Positions 1-27,131 of a stretch of 28,085 bases of DNA are shown here, piece by piece. The notes beneath the pieces were generated by a model that was not told where the DNA came from, did not search any database, and was given only the letters and a program-made list of their open reading frames with translations. The stretch is from IMG/VR virus record IMGVR_UViG_3300033564_000120, positions 1 through 28,085 of that record; one strand, written 5' to 3'. The first letter of the stretch is position 1. Every line of letters begins with the position of its first letter. The position numbers and the translations under genes were made by a program. The stretch is from a virus (lineage: Duplodnaviria > Caudoviricetes).

Positions 1-105
1 AGAGAGATGTGGTGGCAGATGAGAGAAAGAGGTTCTGAAAAATGGAGAGCTGATTTATATTACAAGGCAGTTAAATACTTTGGAGGGTTTTCATTCTTAA
101 AGTAG
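1..105 (+). CDS. 3' end of a gene running in from the left edge, possibly DUF1353-like
   Basis: Frame 1 is open to TAG at 103-105: REMWWQMRERGSEKWRADLYYKAVKYFGGFSFLK; the Y.AV..FG ending recalls DUF1353 proteins. Confidence 0.5.
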   Translation, partial: REMWWQMRERGSEKWRADLYYKAVKYFGGFSFLK

Positions 106-107
106 TG

Positions 108-116
108 TGTTATAAT
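108..116 (+). promoter_or_regulatory. extended -10 promoter
   Basis: TGTTATAAT upstream of the ORF at 144. Confidence 0.5.
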
Positions 117-143: not shown

Positions 144-302
144 ATGCAATTAAATCGCGAAGAATGCACAGTGTTGCTTCAGTTGATTGATAGGGTTCAA
201 CTATCAGGCAAAGAAGCAAGAGCAGTAGCATATATTCAAGGGAAATTGGAAGAAGGTTTGAAAGACCCAATTATCAACGAAATTGAAGCAAAAAAGAAAT
301 AG
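144..302 (+). CDS. small hypothetical protein (52 aa)
   Basis: Manual translation MQLNREECTVLLQLIDRVQLSGKEARAVAYIQGKLEEGLKDPIINEIEAKKK; A-rich leader; below the ORF-track cutoff. Confidence 0.7.
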   Translation: MQLNREECTVLLQLIDRVQLSGKEARAVAYIQGKLEEGLKDPIINEIEAKKK

Positions 303-364
303 CCTATTTTTATAAAGCGGATTAGGCTATTAAAACAAAAGAACAAACTAAGTTTTCAAGTAAA

Positions 365-710
365 AGATTGTTCTGATGTCGGATTGAAATCTAGACCTTA
401 ATTGGTTCTAGAGTTTTGTACAAAGCACTAAAACAAATAGGAGTAAGCGGTATGCAAGCGAGAGCTGCACAAAAAAGAGCAAAACAGAAAGCTCAAAAAA
501 TGGGCTGGGCAGTTGCTTCAAAAGCAAAGGTAATGAAGACGGCATCAAAAAAGAAAATCTTTGTTTAGATAACAATCGGTAGTCCTTTGTCGCACCACGA
601 CAGGTCAAGCCTTAACCCTAGTAAATCGGTCTAGGTAGACATTCCGCGAAATTCGGAAACCCGACCCTGTGACGTTCTGATGAGTGGTGTTATTCTGAAC
701 AGAGGGTGAT
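365..710 (+). ncRNA. candidate large structured RNA, family unassigned
   Basis: Nested long-range helices 378-385/658-665 and 390-397/628-635, several local hairpins including a GAGA tetraloop, terminator at 716-746. Confidence 0.45.
452..568 (+). CDS. possible Lys/Ala-rich basic peptide (38 aa) inside the structured region
   Basis: AGGAG upstream; MQARAAQKRAKQKAQKMGWAVASKAKVMKTASKKKIFV. Confidence 0.35.
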   Translation: MQARAAQKRAKQKAQKMGWAVASKAKVMKTASKKKIFV

Positions 711-715
711 TAAAG

Positions 716-746
716 AGCAAAGCCCCCTTAATTGGGGGTTTTTGCT
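716..746 (+). terminator. intrinsic terminator, possibly bidirectional, fused to the next promoter
   Basis: AGCAAA-GCCCCC-TTAATT-GGGGGT-TTTTGCT, running into TATAAT at 746-751. Confidence 0.8.
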
Positions 747-757
747 ATAATAAAGAT

Positions 758-1696
758 ATGAAAATATCATATTACACAGCATTAAAATGGTGGGGCGAAA
801 AAGAAGCAAAGCAAATAACTCCAAAGGGATATGATTTTGAAGTGATTAAGTTAGATAAAGCACTCCCACATTTTCAAATTAGTAACAGCACTCTGTTTAG
901 AGGTTCAGCTATCTTAAGAGGTTGGGGCAAAGACTCTCATATCCATTATGTTGGAGATTATGTCGAATGGGAAAAGAATAGATCTAAAGATGAAGATTAT
1001 CGTGGACAGACAAGTCGGTTACTTGGTTCTAGTACCAGTTACACAAGAAGTTTTGTAAAAAAGAATGGGTATATCTACATGAAACCGAATGACGATACTG
1101 CAAACTGGTGTAGTAAAACAAAGAAAGGAGCTATCCCTCAATGGATATATACTCCACAGCATGAAAACTTACATTGTAAAACTAGGGATTTAAAAAAACA
1201 AGATAGATTACACGAATGGATTGGACTTGGAAAATATGATAAGTATGAAAGTGAATATCTAGTAAAGGAAATAAACTCACTCCTGCCATTACTCGATAGA
1301 CTATCCTATGATTTCTGTGAGCACGCTAGTACTATCGGATTGGATTTAAGGATTACTTCAGCCTTTAGAAGTGTAGAGAAGCAGAATGAATATTGGAATC
1401 AAGGAAGAACTACTGCTGGAGCGATTATCACTAACGCTAAAGGTGGAGAATCTGCCCACCAGTATGGGATTGCCTTCGATATAGTAGACAGAAAGAAAGG
1501 CTACAACTTATCTGATGAGGAATGGCAGACACTACGCTTTATCTGGCGTTATATTACTTATAAAGAAACTGGTCACTGGGGAGAGTGGGGAGGTGATTGG
1601 ACTTCATTTATTGACAAGCCACACTACCAACTAACACTCGGCTATTCAATAAAGGACTTTCAAACAGGTAATGTTGATTATAGTAAATTTGAATAA
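758..1696 (+). CDS. endolysin with C-terminal M15 family (L-Ala-D-Glu type) Zn peptidase and an unknown N-terminal domain
   Basis: ITSAFRS..Q...W.QGRT, TNAKGGESAHQYGIAFD (SxHxxGxAxD), WGGDW..FIDKPHYQ. Confidence 0.85.
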   Translation: MKISYYTALKWWGEKEAKQITPKGYDFEVIKLDKALPHFQISNSTLFRGSAILRGWGKDSHIHYVGDYVEWEKNRSKDEDYRGQTSRLLGSSTSYTRSFVKKNGYIYMKPNDDTANWCSKTKKGAIPQWIYTPQHENLHCKTRDLKKQDRLHEWIGLGKYDKYESEYLVKEINSLLPLLDRLSYDFCEHASTIGLDLRITSAFRSVEKQNEYWNQGRTTAGAIITNAKGGESAHQYGIAFDIVDRKKGYNLSDEEWQTLRFIWRYITYKETGHWGEWGGDWTSFIDKPHYQLTLGYSIKDFQTGNVDYSKFE

Positions 1697-1723: not shown

Positions 1724-1834
1724 ACCCCCCAATAGGGGGCGATACAACAATATTCTTTCATTTTAGATTGTTCATAATATTTAACTCATAATGTCTATCT
1801 ACAGAACCACCTGCCTCATACGGGTGGTTTCTGT
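1724..1834 (+). ncRNA. candidate ~110-nt small RNA
   Basis: Extended -10 TGATATTAT at 1709-1717, 5' hairpin CCCCC-AATA-GGGGG, AU-rich body with repeated TCAT, 3' terminator; no ORF inside. Confidence 0.45.
1801..1834 (+). terminator. intrinsic terminator fused to a TGTTATAAT promoter
   Basis: AACCACCTG-cctcata-CGGGTGGTT-tctgt, then TATAAT at 1835-1840. Confidence 0.7.
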
Positions 1835-1875
1835 TATAATAAGAGTAGGTGTTCTTAACAAATAGGAGGTATAAA

Positions 1876-1989
1876 ATGCAGTTGGATCTATTCGTTCAAA
1901 TCGGTAGCTTTTATTACTATTGGCATGAGAGGGAAGCTTTGTTAATTCTTTTAATAAGGGAGACAAATGGACTTACTTACATGGAATAA
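1876..1989 (+). CDS. 37-aa peptide starting with a QLDLF clamp-binding-like motif
   Basis: Strong SD AGGAGGT; MQLDLFVQIGSFYYYWHEREALLILLIRETNGLTYME. Confidence 0.6.
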   Translation: MQLDLFVQIGSFYYYWHEREALLILLIRETNGLTYME

Positions 1990-4337: not shown

Positions 4338-4563
4338 ATTTTGCGATTATTGCATTCTCCTTAAAGATGTAGTTATCTTCAAACTTAGTGTAAGGTGCAG
4401 ATTGTTCGACCACTACAACATCACCATTCTTGTAAGAACCAAATTCTGAGTTGGCTTGTAATACAATGTAACTTTCTAACTCCTCACCCAACACTGGCTC
4501 TCTTCTACGAGAGAGTAACACATACCCACTATTTAGCTTCAGATTTACTGTTTTTATGTTCAT
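4330..4563 (-). CDS. groES: divergent co-chaperonin GroES-like protein
   Basis: 77 aa; GYVLL, KNGDVVVV, Y, YIFKENAIIAK echo GroES DRVLV, KVGD.V, YLI..E.DILA; adjacent to GroEL. Confidence 0.6.
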   Translation of the reverse strand: MNIKTVNLKLNSGYVLLSRRREPVLGEELESYIVLQANSEFGSYKNGDVVVVEQSAPYTKFEDNYIFKENAIIAKYE

Positions 4564-6007
4564 AGATTAATGAATTAGTTGTTAATAAAGTACCCACAGC
4601 ACTGACTGACACCTCTATAGCTGTTTTGATGACCTTAAGAGGATCTACAATGCCAGCTAGAAACATATCGTCTACATATTTCTTATTTAAAGCATCATAT
4701 CCTGACTTGCCAGCTAGGATATTACTTATTATAACACCTGCTTCTAGATCTGAGTTTTCTGCTATCTGTCTAAATGGTGCCTCTAACGCCTTAGCCATTA
4801 ATTGATAGCCCACTTCTTTTTTCCCACCAAGGACATAGGCTATCCTTAACAGTTCACATCCACCACCTGCCACTACACCATCCTCCAAGGCAGCTCTAGT
4901 AGCGTTAATAGCATCTTCTATTTTTAGTTTAAGATATTGCATTTCGCTAACAGAAGCCGCCCCTACAGATAGTATAGCCACACTAGAAGTAAGTTTAGCG
5001 ATTCTTTCTTTCAACTTAGTCTTAGTGTATTCTGATTTCTCGTTCTCTATCTTCCTTTTAAGTAATTTAATCCTCTCTTTAGCACTGCCATCAGTCACAA
5101 TAGTAGTCTTGTCTTGAGTAACTGTCACTTTGCAGAATCTGCCATCTTTTACTAAGGATTTTAGGTCTTCTAATTGGTCTACTACTTCTTCTCCCATTCC
5201 AGGAGCTTTTACTGCCACAACTTTGAATCCCCCAGTAGCCGCCGCTTGGACGATTGCATCCAAAGCCTTACCTCTAACATCCCTAGCGACTACTAGCATT
5301 TCATTCCTTCCTCGATCTTGAACTTCTTTTATCTTTTGTAAAAATTCGCTAGCATCATCGATACTCTTATCACTGAACATAATATCAATATCGTTAAGTT
5401 CAGCTGAGCTATTCTCAAGGTTCGTAACCATGTATGGTGATAGAAATCCATTGTTAAACTCTAAACCTTCTTTAATTTCTACTTCGACCCCTAACTTCGG
5501 TGATTGTTCAACTGTCACCACTCCATCTTTCCCAATCTTTCTAAAGACATCTGAAATGATTTTGCCAAGATATTCTGACTCTGAAGAAACTCTCGCAACA
5601 TCTTCTATGTTCTCAACTTTCCTAGCTGACTTCTCAAGCATCGATATAGCGGCCTGTGAGGCTCTGTGGATGGAGTTTCGGACCTCCATGGCACTTACCC
5701 CCATTAAGGTGTATTCTAGCCCATTATTGTACAAAGATTTCGTTAAGATAATGCTACCAGTAGTACCATCCCCTGCGATCTCATTTACCTTGATAGCGAC
5801 TTGCTTAAGAATGTTCGCCCCGACATTTTCTACCTCATCTTCAAGTTCTATTTCTTTGATGATAGAAACCCCATCATTGGTTATAGTAGCACCATCATCT
5901 AAGATAACGTTCTTCCCATTTGGTCCTGCGGTTTCAATAACAGGCTGTGCCGCCTTATTGATTCCATCCCTTATCTTTAGTTTTAATTCTGTATTAGTAC
6001 AAATCAT
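4529..6007 (-). CDS. groEL: phage-encoded group I chaperonin GroEL
   Basis: GPNGKNV, TNDGVSI, AGDGTT, GKDGVVTVE, GFLSPY, AVKAPG, EDAINATRAALEDGVVAGGG, GIVDPLKV. Confidence 0.95.
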   Translation of the reverse strand: MICTNTELKLKIRDGINKAAQPVIETAGPNGKNVILDDGATITNDGVSIIKEIELEDEVENVGANILKQVAIKVNEIAGDGTTGSIILTKSLYNNGLEYTLMGVSAMEVRNSIHRASQAAISMLEKSARKVENIEDVARVSSESEYLGKIISDVFRKIGKDGVVTVEQSPKLGVEVEIKEGLEFNNGFLSPYMVTNLENSSAELNDIDIMFSDKSIDDASEFLQKIKEVQDRGRNEMLVVARDVRGKALDAIVQAAATGGFKVVAVKAPGMGEEVVDQLEDLKSLVKDGRFCKVTVTQDKTTIVTDGSAKERIKLLKRKIENEKSEYTKTKLKERIAKLTSSVAILSVGAASVSEMQYLKLKIEDAINATRAALEDGVVAGGGCELLRIAYVLGGKKEVGYQLMAKALEAPFRQIAENSDLEAGVIISNILAGKSGYDALNKKYVDDMFLAGIVDPLKVIKTAIEVSVSAVGTLLTTNSLIYEHKNSKSEAK

Positions 6008-14595: not shown

Positions 14596-14748
14596 TTAAT
14601 TTAAAATATCAATATCCGTTGCTTCATTGACGCTGATAATAGGAAATTGAAAATTATCTTGGTATCGTTCAATAGCTGTTAAGATATTTTTTTCAATAAC
14701 AATAACCTCTCCCGTTCCAATTTCTTTTCTATATAATATTTTCCACAT
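14596..14748 (-). CDS. hypothetical protein (50 aa)
   Basis: MWKILYRKEIGTGEVIVIEKNILTAIERYQDNFQFPIISVNEATDIDILN. Confidence 0.55.
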   Translation of the reverse strand: MWKILYRKEIGTGEVIVIEKNILTAIERYQDNFQFPIISVNEATDIDILN

Positions 14749-14877
14749 ATATTTTTTATTGTTAATTTTAATAATGTCGACCGTGATTTAATATAGCACA
14801 AATGCTATCTAAAATCAATCACTTTCCCGCTTCTCTTTCCCGTTGTTACTATCTTTTCGAATATTATTCTAATCATA

Positions 14878-15788: not shown

Positions 15789-15829
15789 AATGTTTTTATA
15801 GCTTTTGTTATGTAATTGCTATATGATTA

Positions 15830-15857
15830 AATATATCATATTATATACCTATTGCAA
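15830..15857 (-). promoter_or_regulatory. leftward early promoter
   Basis: Minus strand TTGCAA-16 nt-TATATT with a TG extension. Confidence 0.5.
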
Positions 15858-15875
15858 GCAGTTATTGATTAAACC

Positions 15876-15926
15876 TGTGGATAACTCAAAAGATATACAA
15901 TAATTTGCTTTCGCCAGCGAAACTAT
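15876..15926. promoter_or_regulatory. DnaA box plus palindromic operator-like element, copy 2
   Basis: TGTGGATAA at 15876; TTTCGCCAGCGAAACTAT at 15909. Confidence 0.6.
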
Positions 15927-16365
15927 AAAGAATAATCAAAATATAAATTAAATTTGCCTTGTTTTAGCTGTTAAAAAGATATCAATAAAAATGCTGGAAA
16001 TTCGCGCCCTTTGGTCATAAAACTATTACACCGTATAGAATAGATAAGATTGATAGCTTGAAAAACTGTTATATATCAACAAGAACGCGCCGCCTGTTAT
16101 TGTTAACACATATATAGAGATAGAGTTTAGTTTTGGTTATTGTTATATTAAATGGTTTCGATAAGATTACTCACCAACCAAACACACACACAAACAAGGC
16201 CTATTAAAAAGTTTTAAAAATATATGTTGATAAATAAGGATATAATGGCTGTTATAGGTAGGGTGGAGGGGACGGTTGGAGGGTGACGAAGGGCGGCGGG
16301 GTACCTCATACACCAAAAAAACAGAACTTTTCAAAGGTGTCCATTTTGGAAGAGTGTCAGACAAA

Positions 16366-16513
16366 GGATATCTACGGATATCCAACAAAAAATAAAAAAC
16401 AAATAAAATATTCATAATAACCTTATTTATCAACATATAATGAAAGATATCTTATGGATATCCAATGGATATCTCTGGGATATAGCATATAAATATCTAG
16501 CATCTGGATATCC
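16366..16513. repeat. GATATC palindrome array
   Basis: GATATC at 16367, 16377, 16446, 16457, 16468 and 16507; GATATA at 16479. Confidence 0.8.
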
Positions 16514-16546
16514 ACTATGGTATAATCATCATATAAAATATACAAT

Positions 16547-22861: not shown

Positions 22862-25174
22862 ATGATTGCACTAGCACTAATAACCAGAGATAAGAAGGAG
22901 GATGTAAAATTATTGAGAAGGCTTTTAGATAATATGGAGGGCCATGTAGATGGTATTTTTATTACAGCAGCCGACAAAACGTTTGAAGGGCATGTTAAAA
23001 AGATATGTGCTGAATACAAGGCTCACTATTCTGAATTCAAATGGATAAATGACTTTTCCGCTGCCAGAAACTTTAACTTTAAACAAGTACCAAAAGAGTA
23101 CGAGTATATAATGTGGTCTGACGTAGACGACATGTGGAGAGGATTAGAAAATCTGCCAGTAGTACTTAAGGAGAACAAAGATGCTTACGCTTTCTGGTAC
23201 CTATACGACTTTGATGATGATAAACAACCTGTTGTAGCTCACAAAAAGACCATGATTGTTAGAAATGATGGTTCTTTTGAATGGGAAGGAAGAATTCATG
23301 AGGATATTACAGCGAATCGTGATGTATCTATTGGTTTTTCTACAGATATGGACAGAATGCACTTCACCAACGAGGAAAGAATAGAAGAAGCTAGGGATAG
23401 AAATGAAAAAATAGCTAAAGAAGCATACGAAGCAGACAAAAATGACCCTAGGAATCACTTTAACTACGGTAACGCCCTTATTGGCAGTGGAAAAGCCAAC
23501 AAGGCGTTAGGGATATTCAACGAATTCTTAAAGACATCAGAATCTGACTCAGAAAAGTATCTAATAAGACAGAAACTGTCCTCGATTTATTACGATAAAG
23601 GTATGAAAGAAGATGCAGTTAGAGAACTACAGACCTGTATAGGAATGCAACCTAGCTGGCCTGATGCTTACCTATCACTAGGGCAATTCTTCTTCGATAT
23701 GGGCAATTTAGACCAATCTGAGAGATATTTACTCTATGGATTGGCTTTGAAACCTGTCTATAATTCAATGATTGTTTTCAATCCAAGGGACTATGACTAT
23801 AACCCTATGAACCTTTTAGCTAAGGTTTACTTCAGGAAAAGCCGCCCTGACAAGGCTCTACCACTACTAAGAGGGTGTTTAGAAATCAATCCAAGAAACG
23901 AAAGGATGCAAACCCTTGTTAAAGAGATGGATAAAGAGGTCAAAGAATTACAAAAAATCCTCGGTGTTATTGAAGAGCTTAAGAAAATCGAAGATAAGGA
24001 TAAACTAAAGGCAAAGATAGATTCTCTACCTATCAAACAGAGATCTCATCCTGGAGTTTGTGCTATTTATAATCAAAACTTCTATAAGACAGAATGCAGT
24101 GATAAGGATTTCGTTATTTACTGTGGTTTTACAGAACACGAGTGGAATCCTGAGCTGTTTAGGACAAAAGGTTTCGGAGGATCTGAAGAAGCCATCATCC
24201 ATTTATCTCAACATCTTGCTAAGAACGGTTACAATGTGGAAGTTTACGCTAATATTGGGTCTAAAAGGGTTCAAGAAGGTAATGTTTTATGGAAGCCTTT
24301 TTGGGAATTTAACATCAAGGATGCAACTAATCACATGCTTTTATGGCGTAGCCCTAAGATGTGTGACTATGATTTGAACGCAAAAAACATTTATGTTGAT
24401 GTCCACGATGTTATCTCTCCTGGAGAATTTACAGAAAGTAGATTAAAGAAGATTAAAAAAATCTTTGTTAAGACTAAATTTCACAAATCTCTATTCCCAA
24501 ATGTACCAGATGAGAAATTTGCTGTGATTCCTAATGGGATTAACACCTCAGACTTCAAACCTGCAGAGAAATACCCAAACCTAATCATTAACACCTCTTC
24601 CCCAGATAGATCAATGGAAGCGGCGGCTGAAATCTTTAAAAGGGTAAATAAAGAGGTCCCAGAAGCTAGATTTCAGTGGGCGTATGGCTGGGATGTCTTT
24701 GATTCTGCTCATGCAGGAGACCAGAAAATGATGAAATGGAAAAATGACCTTGTTCAAAAGATGGATGAAGCTGGGGTAGAACAGTTGGGAAAGATTCCTC
24801 AACACGAAATAGCCAATCTGTATGCTGAGGCTCACATTATGTTATATCCAACAGAATTTGCGGAAATTGATTGCATAAGCGTGAAGAAGGCACAATTAGC
24901 AGGTTGCCTTGTGGTTTCAACAGACTTCGGCGCCCTAGATGAGAGCGTACAGCATGGGATAAAGATACACTCATCCAAGACTGGAGAAGATTGGTGCAAG
25001 CCTTATCAGTTCTCCTTTGGTGTAGAGAAAGAAGAGCAGATACAACAGTTTGCTGATACAATAATAAAAGAACTTAAGGTGAATCGTGACACAGCACAAA
25101 TGGTCGAGTTTGGAAAAAGTTTTGATTGGAGTATTATTGGCGATAAGTGGATAAAAGAAATAAATGGAAATTAA
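22862..25174 (+). CDS. tripartite glycosyltransferase: GT-A (GT2-like) + TPR + GT-B (GT4-like)
   Basis: W..DFSAARN, SDVDD, WEGRIHE; TPR helices; GFGGSEEA, IPNGI, SSPDR, YPTEFAEIDCISVKKAQLAG. Confidence 0.9.
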   Translation: MIALALITRDKKEDVKLLRRLLDNMEGHVDGIFITAADKTFEGHVKKICAEYKAHYSEFKWINDFSAARNFNFKQVPKEYEYIMWSDVDDMWRGLENLPVVLKENKDAYAFWYLYDFDDDKQPVVAHKKTMIVRNDGSFEWEGRIHEDITANRDVSIGFSTDMDRMHFTNEERIEEARDRNEKIAKEAYEADKNDPRNHFNYGNALIGSGKANKALGIFNEFLKTSESDSEKYLIRQKLSSIYYDKGMKEDAVRELQTCIGMQPSWPDAYLSLGQFFFDMGNLDQSERYLLYGLALKPVYNSMIVFNPRDYDYNPMNLLAKVYFRKSRPDKALPLLRGCLEINPRNERMQTLVKEMDKEVKELQKILGVIEELKKIEDKDKLKAKIDSLPIKQRSHPGVCAIYNQNFYKTECSDKDFVIYCGFTEHEWNPELFRTKGFGGSEEAIIHLSQHLAKNGYNVEVYANIGSKRVQEGNVLWKPFWEFNIKDATNHMLLWRSPKMCDYDLNAKNIYVDVHDVISPGEFTESRLKKIKKIFVKTKFHKSLFPNVPDEKFAVIPNGINTSDFKPAEKYPNLIINTSSPDRSMEAAAEIFKRVNKEVPEARFQWAYGWDVFDSAHAGDQKMMKWKNDLVQKMDEAGVEQLGKIPQHEIANLYAEAHIMLYPTEFAEIDCISVKKAQLAGCLVVSTDFGALDESVQHGIKIHSSKTGEDWCKPYQFSFGVEKEEQIQQFADTIIKELKVNRDTAQMVEFGKSFDWSIIGDKWIKEINGN

Positions 25175-25580
25175 TGACAGAGTAGAAGAATTAGGCGACC
25201 CAGAGTTTGCTGGGAAATACATAGAGAAGCTAGGAATAACTAGAGACGACTTTGCTGACCCCGAAAGGGCGTTGAAGATTAAGGATATTATAGATTATCT
25301 CAAGGAACACCCAGATCCTGACTTTTTATTGTATAAATCTGTTGGGTCGAAGCAAGTCGATCGGGTTGAATTCTTAAGTGAGTATATCCAGTTTTACAAA
25401 GAGCATGATGGATACTCGAAGAAACTAAACACCATAAACGAGAAGATTTCAAAATATAATTCAGAAGGATTAATCGATCCACTTGAACAAGATATTTATT
25501 CAATGCTGTTAGAAGAAAAGGCGACAGTTAAAGAGAAGATAAATAGGATCCAACAAGAAATACAAATATATGAAAAGTAA
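25164..25580 (+). CDS. hypothetical helical protein in the glycosyltransferase cluster
   Basis: ORF track; overlaps both neighbours. Confidence 0.7.
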   Translation: MEINDRVEELGDPEFAGKYIEKLGITRDDFADPERALKIKDIIDYLKEHPDPDFLLYKSVGSKQVDRVEFLSEYIQFYKEHDGYSKKLNTINEKISKYNSEGLIDPLEQDIYSMLLEEKATVKEKINRIQQEIQIYEK

Positions 25581-26481
25581 AAGAATAGCATTCATTTGGC
25601 AAGGTTTAGAAGATATGAAAGAGAAGTGGGAAGACGGTCTTGCTATGGCTATGAAACAGCTTGAAAAGATTTACGAAGTAGAATACCTCGAACCAGAGTA
25701 TGACTTAGACGGATATGACGCCCTAATTTACTGGGAAGCCCCTTGTACTATAAATGGTGAGAATGCTCAGAACTATCTGAAGGTTAAAAATCACTCAACC
25801 CCTAAAATTTTACTTTTCGCAGGAGGACCTATTAACCCTAAATGGGTTGAAGGCTTTGATACTGTTGTGATAGAGTCAGAAATTAATAGAGAAGAATTCG
25901 CTAACTTTGGAATAGAAACCACAAAAGCTTTCGGTATAAACACCGACCTTTTCAAACCTTATAAAGTAAAGAAGAAATACAAAGCAGTACATCATGGAAC
26001 TTGTGCAAGCTGGAAAAGACAATGGTTACTTCCTCAAGCTTTTGGGGAAGACTCCGCCCTGATTGGAAGGAATCAGGAAAAAGACTCTTACCCATTTATT
26101 TACTCAAAAGAGTTAGGGGCAAAGATTTTAGGTGAGTTGAAAGGTAAAGAACTAGTAAAAGCTGTTAATTCAGCAGATGTTCTAGTCCAGAGTAGTGACT
26201 TCTGGGGAGGAGGGCAAAGGGCAACCTTAGAAGCTATGGCTTGTGGGATACCTGTTATCTGTATGTCAGACAGCCCTAAGAATATCGAATACATACAGGC
26301 ATCAGGAGGTGGACTGGTTTCAGAACCAGACCCAGAGTCGATAAAACGAGCCTATGATGATATAATGAAAGATTACCAGACGTTTTCCAAGAGAGCTAGA
26401 GATTATGTTCTCCAGAACTGGACTTGGAAACATTACGCGTTTAACTTAAATCAAGCAATATGCAATTTGAAGAAAAAATAA
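25570..26481 (+). CDS. GT4-like glycosyltransferase
   Basis: FGINTDLFKP, WKRQ, ADVLVQSS..GGGQRATLEAMACGIPVI, NWTW. Confidence 0.9.
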   Translation: MKSKRIAFIWQGLEDMKEKWEDGLAMAMKQLEKIYEVEYLEPEYDLDGYDALIYWEAPCTINGENAQNYLKVKNHSTPKILLFAGGPINPKWVEGFDTVVIESEINREEFANFGIETTKAFGINTDLFKPYKVKKKYKAVHHGTCASWKRQWLLPQAFGEDSALIGRNQEKDSYPFIYSKELGAKILGELKGKELVKAVNSADVLVQSSDFWGGGQRATLEAMACGIPVICMSDSPKNIEYIQASGGGLVSEPDPESIKRAYDDIMKDYQTFSKRARDYVLQNWTWKHYAFNLNQAICNLKKK

Positions 26482-27131
26482 AACAAGAAGTTCCCCAGGA
26501 TGACAGTACAGACATCGCAGAGAAGATGATCCTTTATACTGAAATTAAGAAAAGAAAACCACAAATAGTAGTCGAGATAGGAACCCACAGGGGTCTTACA
26601 ACGCTCTATATGGCTCATGCTCTGTGGGAAAATGGAAAAGGGATGATACATACTTGTGATCCGAATCCAGAGTGGTATCAAGAAGGAAACTTCTGTAAAT
26701 TCGAGGAGTTTAAGGATATTATTAAATTTCACCTTATCAAAGGGAAAGATTTACCAAAGGACATAGCTCCGATAGATTTCTTATTTATAGATGGATTCCA
26801 CGAGAAAGAATTCGTCCTAGAGGAATTACGAGAACTAATGCCAAGATTATCAGAGAATGCAGTTGTTTATTTCCACGATACTCTGGGTTCTAATGTTTCT
26901 TGTGATCCCCTAGGGGCGGCAAAAGATTTTGGTTTGGAAGTACAGATTATCAATACTAAAAATGGAATGGCTATATATGAACACAATAAAAATTTCAGTG
27001 ATAACACCGACAATTCGTCCAGAGGGACTACAAGTGATGAGGGAGAGTCTGCTAAGCCAGGGGTTCAAAGAGTTCGAGTGGTTAGTGGAAGTAAACGTAT
27101 CAGGAAAACACGATCTAAACGAAGCATTTAA
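26460..27131 (+). CDS. class I SAM-dependent methyltransferase (Methyltransf_24-like)
   Basis: VVEIGTHRGLTT, IDFLFIDGFH, VYFHD. Confidence 0.9.
   Translation: MQFEEKIKQEVPQDDSTDIAEKMILYTEIKKRKPQIVVEIGTHRGLTTLYMAHALWENGKGMIHTCDPNPEWYQEGNFCKFEEFKDIIKFHLIKGKDLPKDIAPIDFLFIDGFHEKEFVLEELRELMPRLSENAVVYFHDTLGSNVSCDPLGAAKDFGLEVQIINTKNGMAIYEHNKNFSDNTDNSSRGTTSDEGESAKPGVQRVRVVSGSKRIRKTRSKRSI

Follow-up and report, generated by a model that had tools for sequence, protein, structure and literature searches.

The stretch that precedes the endolysin gene of this phage raises a simple question, namely whether an unusually long gap holds one large folded RNA, as a preliminary description of the sequence had proposed, or a set of parts with separate histories. 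The window (the whole stretch of DNA analysed here, 28,085 nucleotides in length) is a 28 kb fragment of a tailed phage, 56% complete, with genes for an SU10-type capsid and portal, a terminase, a primase-helicase, GroEL and an M15 peptidase endolysin. Its sequence is present in five DNA runs from microbial mat metagenomes of three studies, one of which may be its source; no RNA run is listed among those that contain it, a fact with no bearing on expression. The peptidoglycan peptidase, the group I GroEL and the TGnTATAAT boxes all point to a bacterial host, and a Shine-Dalgarno-like word stands before 5 of the 36 starts in the window, with starts taken as listed. Elsewhere in the window, a GroEL gene occupies 4529-6007 on the minus strand in a phage of ~40 kb, a cluster of TPR-glycosyltransferase, glycosyltransferase and methyltransferase genes (22862-27131, plus strand) lies directly 3' of the capsid gene, and a long AT-rich gap between two gene arms (15790-16540, G-rich around 16255-16305) is a possible origin or packaging site. 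The features in and around the gap before the endolysin are as follows.

88..116, plus strand: promoter-like site with a -35 word, 17 nt and a TG-extended TATAAT, shared with the sibling contig L002
144..302, plus strand: ORF52, a small protein, in whose place L002 has a 31%-identical homolog
298..332, no strand assigned: hairpin H1, with a U-run on its minus-strand side, absent from L002 (z -3.2, 0 of 200 shuffles)
332..419, plus strand: piece A, a portable 88-nt hairpin-ended unit that contains the 5' arms of the helices in the preliminary description
386..416, plus strand: hairpin H2, local and terminator-like, followed by a short U-run (z -2.4, 6 of 200 shuffles)
416..568, plus strand: piece B, a basic orphan ORF
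569..715, plus strand: piece C, a GC-rich 3' segment ahead of the terminator
717..745, both strands: intrinsic terminator, in which two natural changes (724, 739) keep pairing
743..751, plus strand: TG-extended -10 box, overlapping the terminator tail
758..1696, plus strand: endolysin with a C-terminal M15/VanY peptidase domain

The earlier proposal was an RNA of ~350 nt closed by two nested long-range helices (378/658 and 390/628), crossed by a pseudoknot, and serving as a noncoding RNA or a lysis-timing switch. Every motif on which it was built is found where it was placed, and the gap is indeed long, although it contains an ORF at 416/452-568. The two helices can be drawn, they nest around the hairpin 642-658, their arms are unaltered in the listed variants except at 389, and they form the best nested long-range pair within 365-746; their score of 37, however, is reached by 74 of 150 dinucleotide shuffles, which is chance level, and both have a pair probability of 0.0. 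Forcing them incurs a penalty of 11.4 kcal/mol, the 378/658 helix carries an A-C mismatch, and a competing local hairpin at 390-412 has a pair probability of 0.87-1.0 in five of its six pairs. The proposed pseudoknot, GATTGTT(366)/AACAATC(571), has a pair probability of ~0.01 and is one of three perfect 7-bp long-range helices, a number that 344 of 1000 shuffles reach. The folding energy of 365-746 is better than that of shuffled sequence (z -2.8), but only to z -1.4 for 365-715 once the terminator is removed; the folding signal comes mostly from the terminator, which is strong (z -4.0) and follows the hairpins as described. The short local hairpins lie where they were reported, and their count is somewhat above chance, at six against a shuffle mean of 2.3 (15 of 500 shuffles).

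Natural alleles separate the gap into its parts. A metagenome scan matched one locus, the sibling contig L002, which from position 417 onward agrees with the window at 99.9% identity for 4319 nt and lacks 303-416, and with it all three 5' arm words, so that a single large RNA closed by long-range helices finds no support in the comparison. Upstream of its junction L002 has a different, 52-aa homolog of ORF52 with a stop just before the junction at 417, and this type of junction was seen in three of the four metagenome runs compared. In three of the four runs compared, too, 332-419 stands alone between unrelated flanks, with a TATAAT just upstream. The lone copy differs at 10 of its 88 nt, and four of these differences are listed: the changes at 386 and 389 preserve or extend the pairing of the hairpin 386-416, and those at 368 and 369 break the pseudoknot. 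A further variant, found in runs X3 and X5, leaves piece A unchanged and has 12 differences across 475-739 with no change in 617-723; its change at 573 interrupts the pseudoknot halfway along, and all four of its substitutions at predicted paired sites (587, 616, 724, 739) keep pairing. Last, in one X3 contig positions 269 and 746 flank a different sequence, 269 being the point at which protein P0002 and ORF52 diverge, and the whole region therefore seems replaceable; this is a weaker sign, as it comes from a single contig at 80% likeness.

Piece A (332-419) and pieces B and C together (417-746) are thus found apart in relatives, and because L002, the lone copy and the X3/X5 alleles split the element, we regard the region as a recombining mosaic. 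We consider it highly probable that three separable pieces make up the gap as a mosaic. The closed ~350-nt RNA is largely refuted by the absence of its 5' arms from L002, the broken pseudoknot and the chance-level helices, and we consider it very unlikely. What still speaks for that RNA is a pair of repeated words, at 370/674 and 396/726, which recur colinearly beyond chance (2 of 2000 shuffles, with a descriptor that was composed after the words were seen). The first of these had been noted earlier and is present, although by itself it says little, given that some 9-mer repeat arises in 670 of 2000 shuffles. Since the two words recur colinearly above chance, piece A may be related to the last part of piece C.

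The shared words lie in 332-419 and 670-746, and the second occurs in both terminator loops; the two segments may descend from one terminator cassette. A stop-free frame that has no start codon, 333-401 on the plus strand, also spans piece A, and of the four differences listed for the lone copy, three hit third codon positions of this frame when read by hand. Piece A may be a decayed gene of 20 codons. A scan of viral contigs with the piece A word returned seven loci, none of them homologous. At 14748-14800 on the minus strand, an early-promoter-like sequence has two short words in common with the region upstream of the lone copy, hinting that this copy may sit in the early region of a related phage.

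The second half of the earlier proposal, an element that times lysis, depends on how the endolysin is transcribed. The endolysin ATG stands 6 nt after the extended -10 box, at the expected +1, and such a distance is the spacing expected of a leaderless mRNA. As judged from these signals, the endolysin very probably has a separate promoter and its mRNA is likely leaderless. A lysis-timing leader is unlikely, as the terminator at 717-745 is strong and the endolysin has its own -10 box and leaderless start; some control of the endolysin by read-through is nonetheless conceivable. The same union of terminator and promoter is repeated at 1811-1840, within a stretch (1811-1989, plus strand) in which a second terminator is fused with a TG-extended -10 box (1832-1840) and followed by a 37-aa ORF. 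On the upstream side, the promoter-like site at 88-116 is the only candidate found that could drive transcription from ORF52 through the terminator at 717-745.

The basic micro-ORF reported inside the gap is present, and it constitutes piece B. Read from the ATG at 452 it encodes 38 aa, with GGAG at 440-443, 8 nt upstream; read from the TTG at 416 it encodes 50 aa, and the same start is an ATG in L002, in-frame just after the upstream stop. The 50-aa form has 14 lysines and arginines, zero acidic residues and a hydrophilic GRAVY of -0.63. Its codon use scores 0.75, against 0.73 +/- 0.065 in 160 tiles of real genes, of which 93 score at or below it, and 6 of 142 shadow frames reach the same value, although the score is inflated by the A-rich sequence. 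Among the variants compared, the stop is retained through a change of TAG to TAA and no indel falls inside the ORF, and three of the four changes within it alter the protein, so that purifying selection is without support. We judge from these features that the ORF is probably translated. The 37-aa ORF downstream and the basic ORF both belong to the small set of ORFs in this phage whose start follows a Shine-Dalgarno-like word, and their leaders (1858-1868 and 433-443) share an 11-nt word.

What the peptide might do is suggested chiefly by its charge, with nucleic acid binding as the default guess. The ORF has no match in Pfam, PHROGs, NCBIfam or Atlas and no homolog outside its own lineage among 1.84 billion representatives, and the structure model of the peptide is one low-confidence helix (pLDDT 65) with an amphipathicity no better than that of shuffles (44-59% reach it). 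One could argue from the lack of a homolog that 417-715 is instead one noncoding RNA of ~300 nt, built of hairpins and A-rich linkers, with the ORF an accident of A-runs; all four changes within the ORF, three of them non-synonymous, fall outside the three short stems of the preliminary description when placed by hand, which such an RNA would also explain. The modest folding of the stretch (z -1.7 for 452-568 and -0.5 for 420-568) speaks against this, and the in-frame ATG in L002, the kept stop and the codon use resembling that of real genes favour a coding sequence, so we hold a 300-nt RNA to be improbable.

A second suggestion concerns the peptide only and is compatible with the reading that we favour, namely that the ORF encodes a disruptin-like lysis helper. 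A 50-aa peptide with 14 lysines and arginines, no acidic residue and a position beside an endolysin gene is what one would look for, and a weak holin-like gene lies nearby in L002 (E 0.024). The disruptin phiKT gp28 is 56 aa long with a net charge of +7 (10.1101/515445), and the basic ORF resembles it in being small, cationic, predicted to be helical and located beside the endolysin. The basic ORF differs in having no sequence match in any library and no amphipathic signal, and in being separated from its endolysin by a terminator. Given a hydrophilic peptide with an amphipathic moment at shuffle level, and given that selecting candidates by size and charge is called noisy in the same text (10.1101/515445), a disruptin-like role seems improbable as well.

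There remains piece C, at 47% GC against 37% for the window and in the top 3% of 147-nt tiles. Stops occur in five of its six frames and near the start of the sixth, leaving no intact frame. Its predicted features, all on the plus strand, are these.

586..604, plus strand: hairpin a, the loop of which (593-598) is complementary to 684-689
609..636, plus strand: hairpin b, 609-612/633-636 plus 615-617/628-630, with an alternative register 617-621/631-635
642..658, plus strand: hairpin c, a 7-nt loop on a stem of 5 bp
664..707, plus strand: predicted double kink-turn hairpin, by sequence consensus, missed in the preliminary description
Within 664..707, plus strand: outer turn by sequence, with bulge 668-670, G671-A703, A672-G702, a C:G closing pair and 3b = C
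Within 664..707, plus strand: inner turn of box C/D type by sequence, with bulge 676-678, G679-A698, A680-G697, U-U and G-C

By their sequence, both turns have the parts of the standard kink-turn, namely a C helix, a 3-nt bulge, the tandem G-A and A-G pairs and an NC helix (PMC8191799). A three-pair helix, 673-675/699-701, is common to both, and the NC helix of the outer turn doubles as the short C helix of the inner one, as a double module demands (PMC5499556). A descriptor of this double kink-turn matched none of 3000 dinucleotide shuffles and has a single occurrence on the two strands of the window; a looser descriptor matched 3 of 5000 shuffles and nothing in 270,910 bases of unrelated viral loci, counts that overstate the case because the descriptor was written after the sequence had been seen. 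By published rules, a C:G pair at -1 and 3b = C favour kink-turn folding in Mg2+ (PMC8191799), and U:U at 3b:3n with G:C at 4b:4n is the box C/D pattern, which requires protein (PMC5689011). The inner turn resembles that pattern in its U:U and G:C pairs, its C-box-like word at 677-683 and its D box at 695-698 (PMC5689011). The tip of the hairpin (684-689) complements the loop of hairpin a exactly, and a kissing contact between 684-689 and 593-598 is a doubtful prospect.

Piece C alone folds at shuffle level (z -0.5 for 569-715), and the energy model favours a long rod, 583-598/684-706 (p ~0.8), that is incompatible with the kink-turns; the four-hairpin model scores -17.5 vs -35.8 kcal/mol, with the kink-turns scored as plain loops. 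The inner turn also competes with ordinary pairs at 676-677/697-698. The substitutions at 587 and 616 keep pairing without deciding between the rod and the hairpins, and the one at 587 is compatible with both. No piece C homolog below 96% identity was found, all copies being identical or 96%, and thus there is no covariation for the double kink-turn.

Under these circumstances it is reasonable to ask whether piece C, within the same mosaic, is a neutral GC-rich spacer or the relic of a gene, in which kink-turn words and hairpins have come together by chance. Its folding z of -0.5 would suit such a spacer, its hairpin count is reached in 63 of 1000 shuffles, no homolog was found in scans of viral and genome contigs, plasmids and phages, and the region is apparently replaced in the X3 contig mentioned above. 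The rarity of the double kink-turn consensus and the preservation of pairing in four of four changes at paired sites speak against neutrality, and a gene relic sits uneasily with the lack of any intact reading frame. We find a neutral piece C rather unlikely, and that piece C is a selected RNA structure seems to us an even call. A smaller structured RNA in the 3' 150 nt is plausible, as the gap combines a basic micro-ORF, the absence of an Rfam family and a GC-rich 3' 150 nt with a rare motif; the kink-turn module, as predicted, is the one lead worth keeping.

The preliminary description had recognised no known RNA family, and the Rfam search agrees. No match reached the gathering score in the window or in L002, and when 280-800 was compared with 4227 models at E up to 10 there were 11 weak matches, all terminator- or microRNA-type, and none for the L002 allele at the same threshold. 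Neither raiA, ROOL, GOLLD, HEARO nor OLE is among the Rfam matches, and a single-family search for raiA found nothing. A large ornate noncoding RNA was rejected because no model matched and its 5' and 3' parts are not inherited together (332-419 occurs alone, and the arms are missing in L002). We likewise rejected a tmRNA, for which a tRNA-like domain with T-arm and CCA end and a tag frame would be needed (0 with ARAGORN and 0 with RF00023), RNase P RNA, whose conserved catalytic core its family models should detect (RF00373 and RF00010, both 0 at E up to 10), and a group I intron or small self-cleaving ribozyme of the classes that Rfam covers (no model match). A box C/D guide RNA carries four boxes (C, D', C' and D) and guides 10-21 nt long; this candidate was rejected as well, piece C having 11 nt between its C and D boxes, no inner C' or D' boxes and no room for a guide. 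Resemblances to hammerhead and hairpin ribozymes, CRISPR repeats, tmRNA and lambda N-like elements we take to be leads, and the RNA ones were checked through Rfam.

Could piece C nonetheless be the remnant, or a reduced version, of some ribozyme or housekeeping RNA already known, such as RNase P, tmRNA, a hammerhead or hairpin ribozyme or a group I intron? A few of its short words presumably resemble conserved words of such RNAs, and we counted this in favour. The double kink-turn itself also counts in favour, being known from P12 of euryarchaeal RNase P RNA, where it binds two copies of L7Ae (PMC5499556). As described there, P12 and 664-707 agree in having two kink-turns in the same direction, the NC helix of one serving as the next C helix, and about three joining pairs (PMC5499556). 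They differ in that 664-707 lies in a phage 3' region among bacterial-type promoters and a peptidoglycan endolysin, matches no RNase P model, and is only predicted to bind protein. No family of this kind appears at E up to 10 among the 4227 Rfam models, searches with individual models of RNase P, tmRNA and raiA were negative, as was ARAGORN, and we consider a relic most improbable.

RAGATH-18, drum, HOLDH and Actinomyces-1 are comparable as small structured intergenic RNAs with a single kink-turn, and the outer turn of piece C obeys the same ion-folding rules (PMC8191799); piece C differs from them in its two turns, in having no Rfam match and in having neither TnpB nor another listed partner nearby. 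The OLE kink-turn is proposed to bind OapC (PMC12286853). The RNAs raiA, ROOL, GOLLD and OLE likewise come from intergenic regions of phages or bacteria and have no known function (PMC12286853), whereas our candidate is ~130-150 nt, has no supported closing helix and is confined to one lineage. The literature consulted, mostly non-subscription and in part, yielded no phage double kink-turn RNA, and the portions seen of PMC13085918 and PMC12510878 contained no phage kink-turn example.

Sequence searches for relatives, from which records very close to this genome may have been withheld, were similarly unproductive. BLAST of 330-760 against 50,697 phages returned short pieces only, the best being a terminator look-alike, and piece C had no match in plasmids and five chance matches in phages. 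Scans of viral contigs gave either nothing or candidates that lack a relative, with two chance loci within a long unrelated ORF, and scans of genome contigs gave nothing beyond one chance locus. When viral contigs were searched with the C/D-like pattern, none of the best 120 of ~290 loci was similar beyond the pattern itself; seven were read in detail. One of these scanned contigs, a viral contig of 2.2 kb, has near its end an unrelated C/D-like hairpin in an apparently structured stretch (L058:40-70, minus strand), which has no Rfam match at the gathering score.

The reading that we favour, to which we assign a probability of roughly 0.5, is that of a mosaic that forms the tail of a small two-gene transcript, with piece C probably folded into local hairpins that include a double kink-turn cap. 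Transcription would start at the promoter at 88-116, cross ORF52 and the basic ORF and end at 717-745, and in the window allele the hairpin 386-416 would probably attenuate this transcript. The last 150 nt would fold as local hairpins, one of them with two stacked kink-turns, and this double kink-turn would form a protein-binding end cap just ahead of the terminator, its outer turn folding in Mg2+ and its inner C/D-type turn requiring protein. The double bend could bring 684-689 back onto the loop 593-598. The compact domain thus formed may shield the 3' end, or it may survive as a small RNA in complex with either the basic peptide or an L7Ae-family protein of the host; the 28-kb record, which is 56% complete, encodes no L7Ae. 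The endolysin would have its own leaderless transcript, made from the -10 box at 743-751. A bolder form of this proposal, which we regard as unlikely, is that the micro-ORF transcript yields piece C, from its 3' end, as a small RNA of the phage. In this RNA the kink-bent hairpin would kiss another, and it would assemble into a particle either with the 50-aa peptide or, acting as a decoy, with an L7Ae-family protein of the host.

The negative result is useful in its own right, in that natural sibling alleles expose a long RNA fold of convincing appearance as a join of unrelated pieces. If the double kink-turn is real, a construct of 44 nt would permit direct tests of protein binding and folding. 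Were it borne out, a motif described from archaeal RNase P would move into the phage of a bacterium, and might point to the use by phages of the kink-turn-binding proteins of their hosts.
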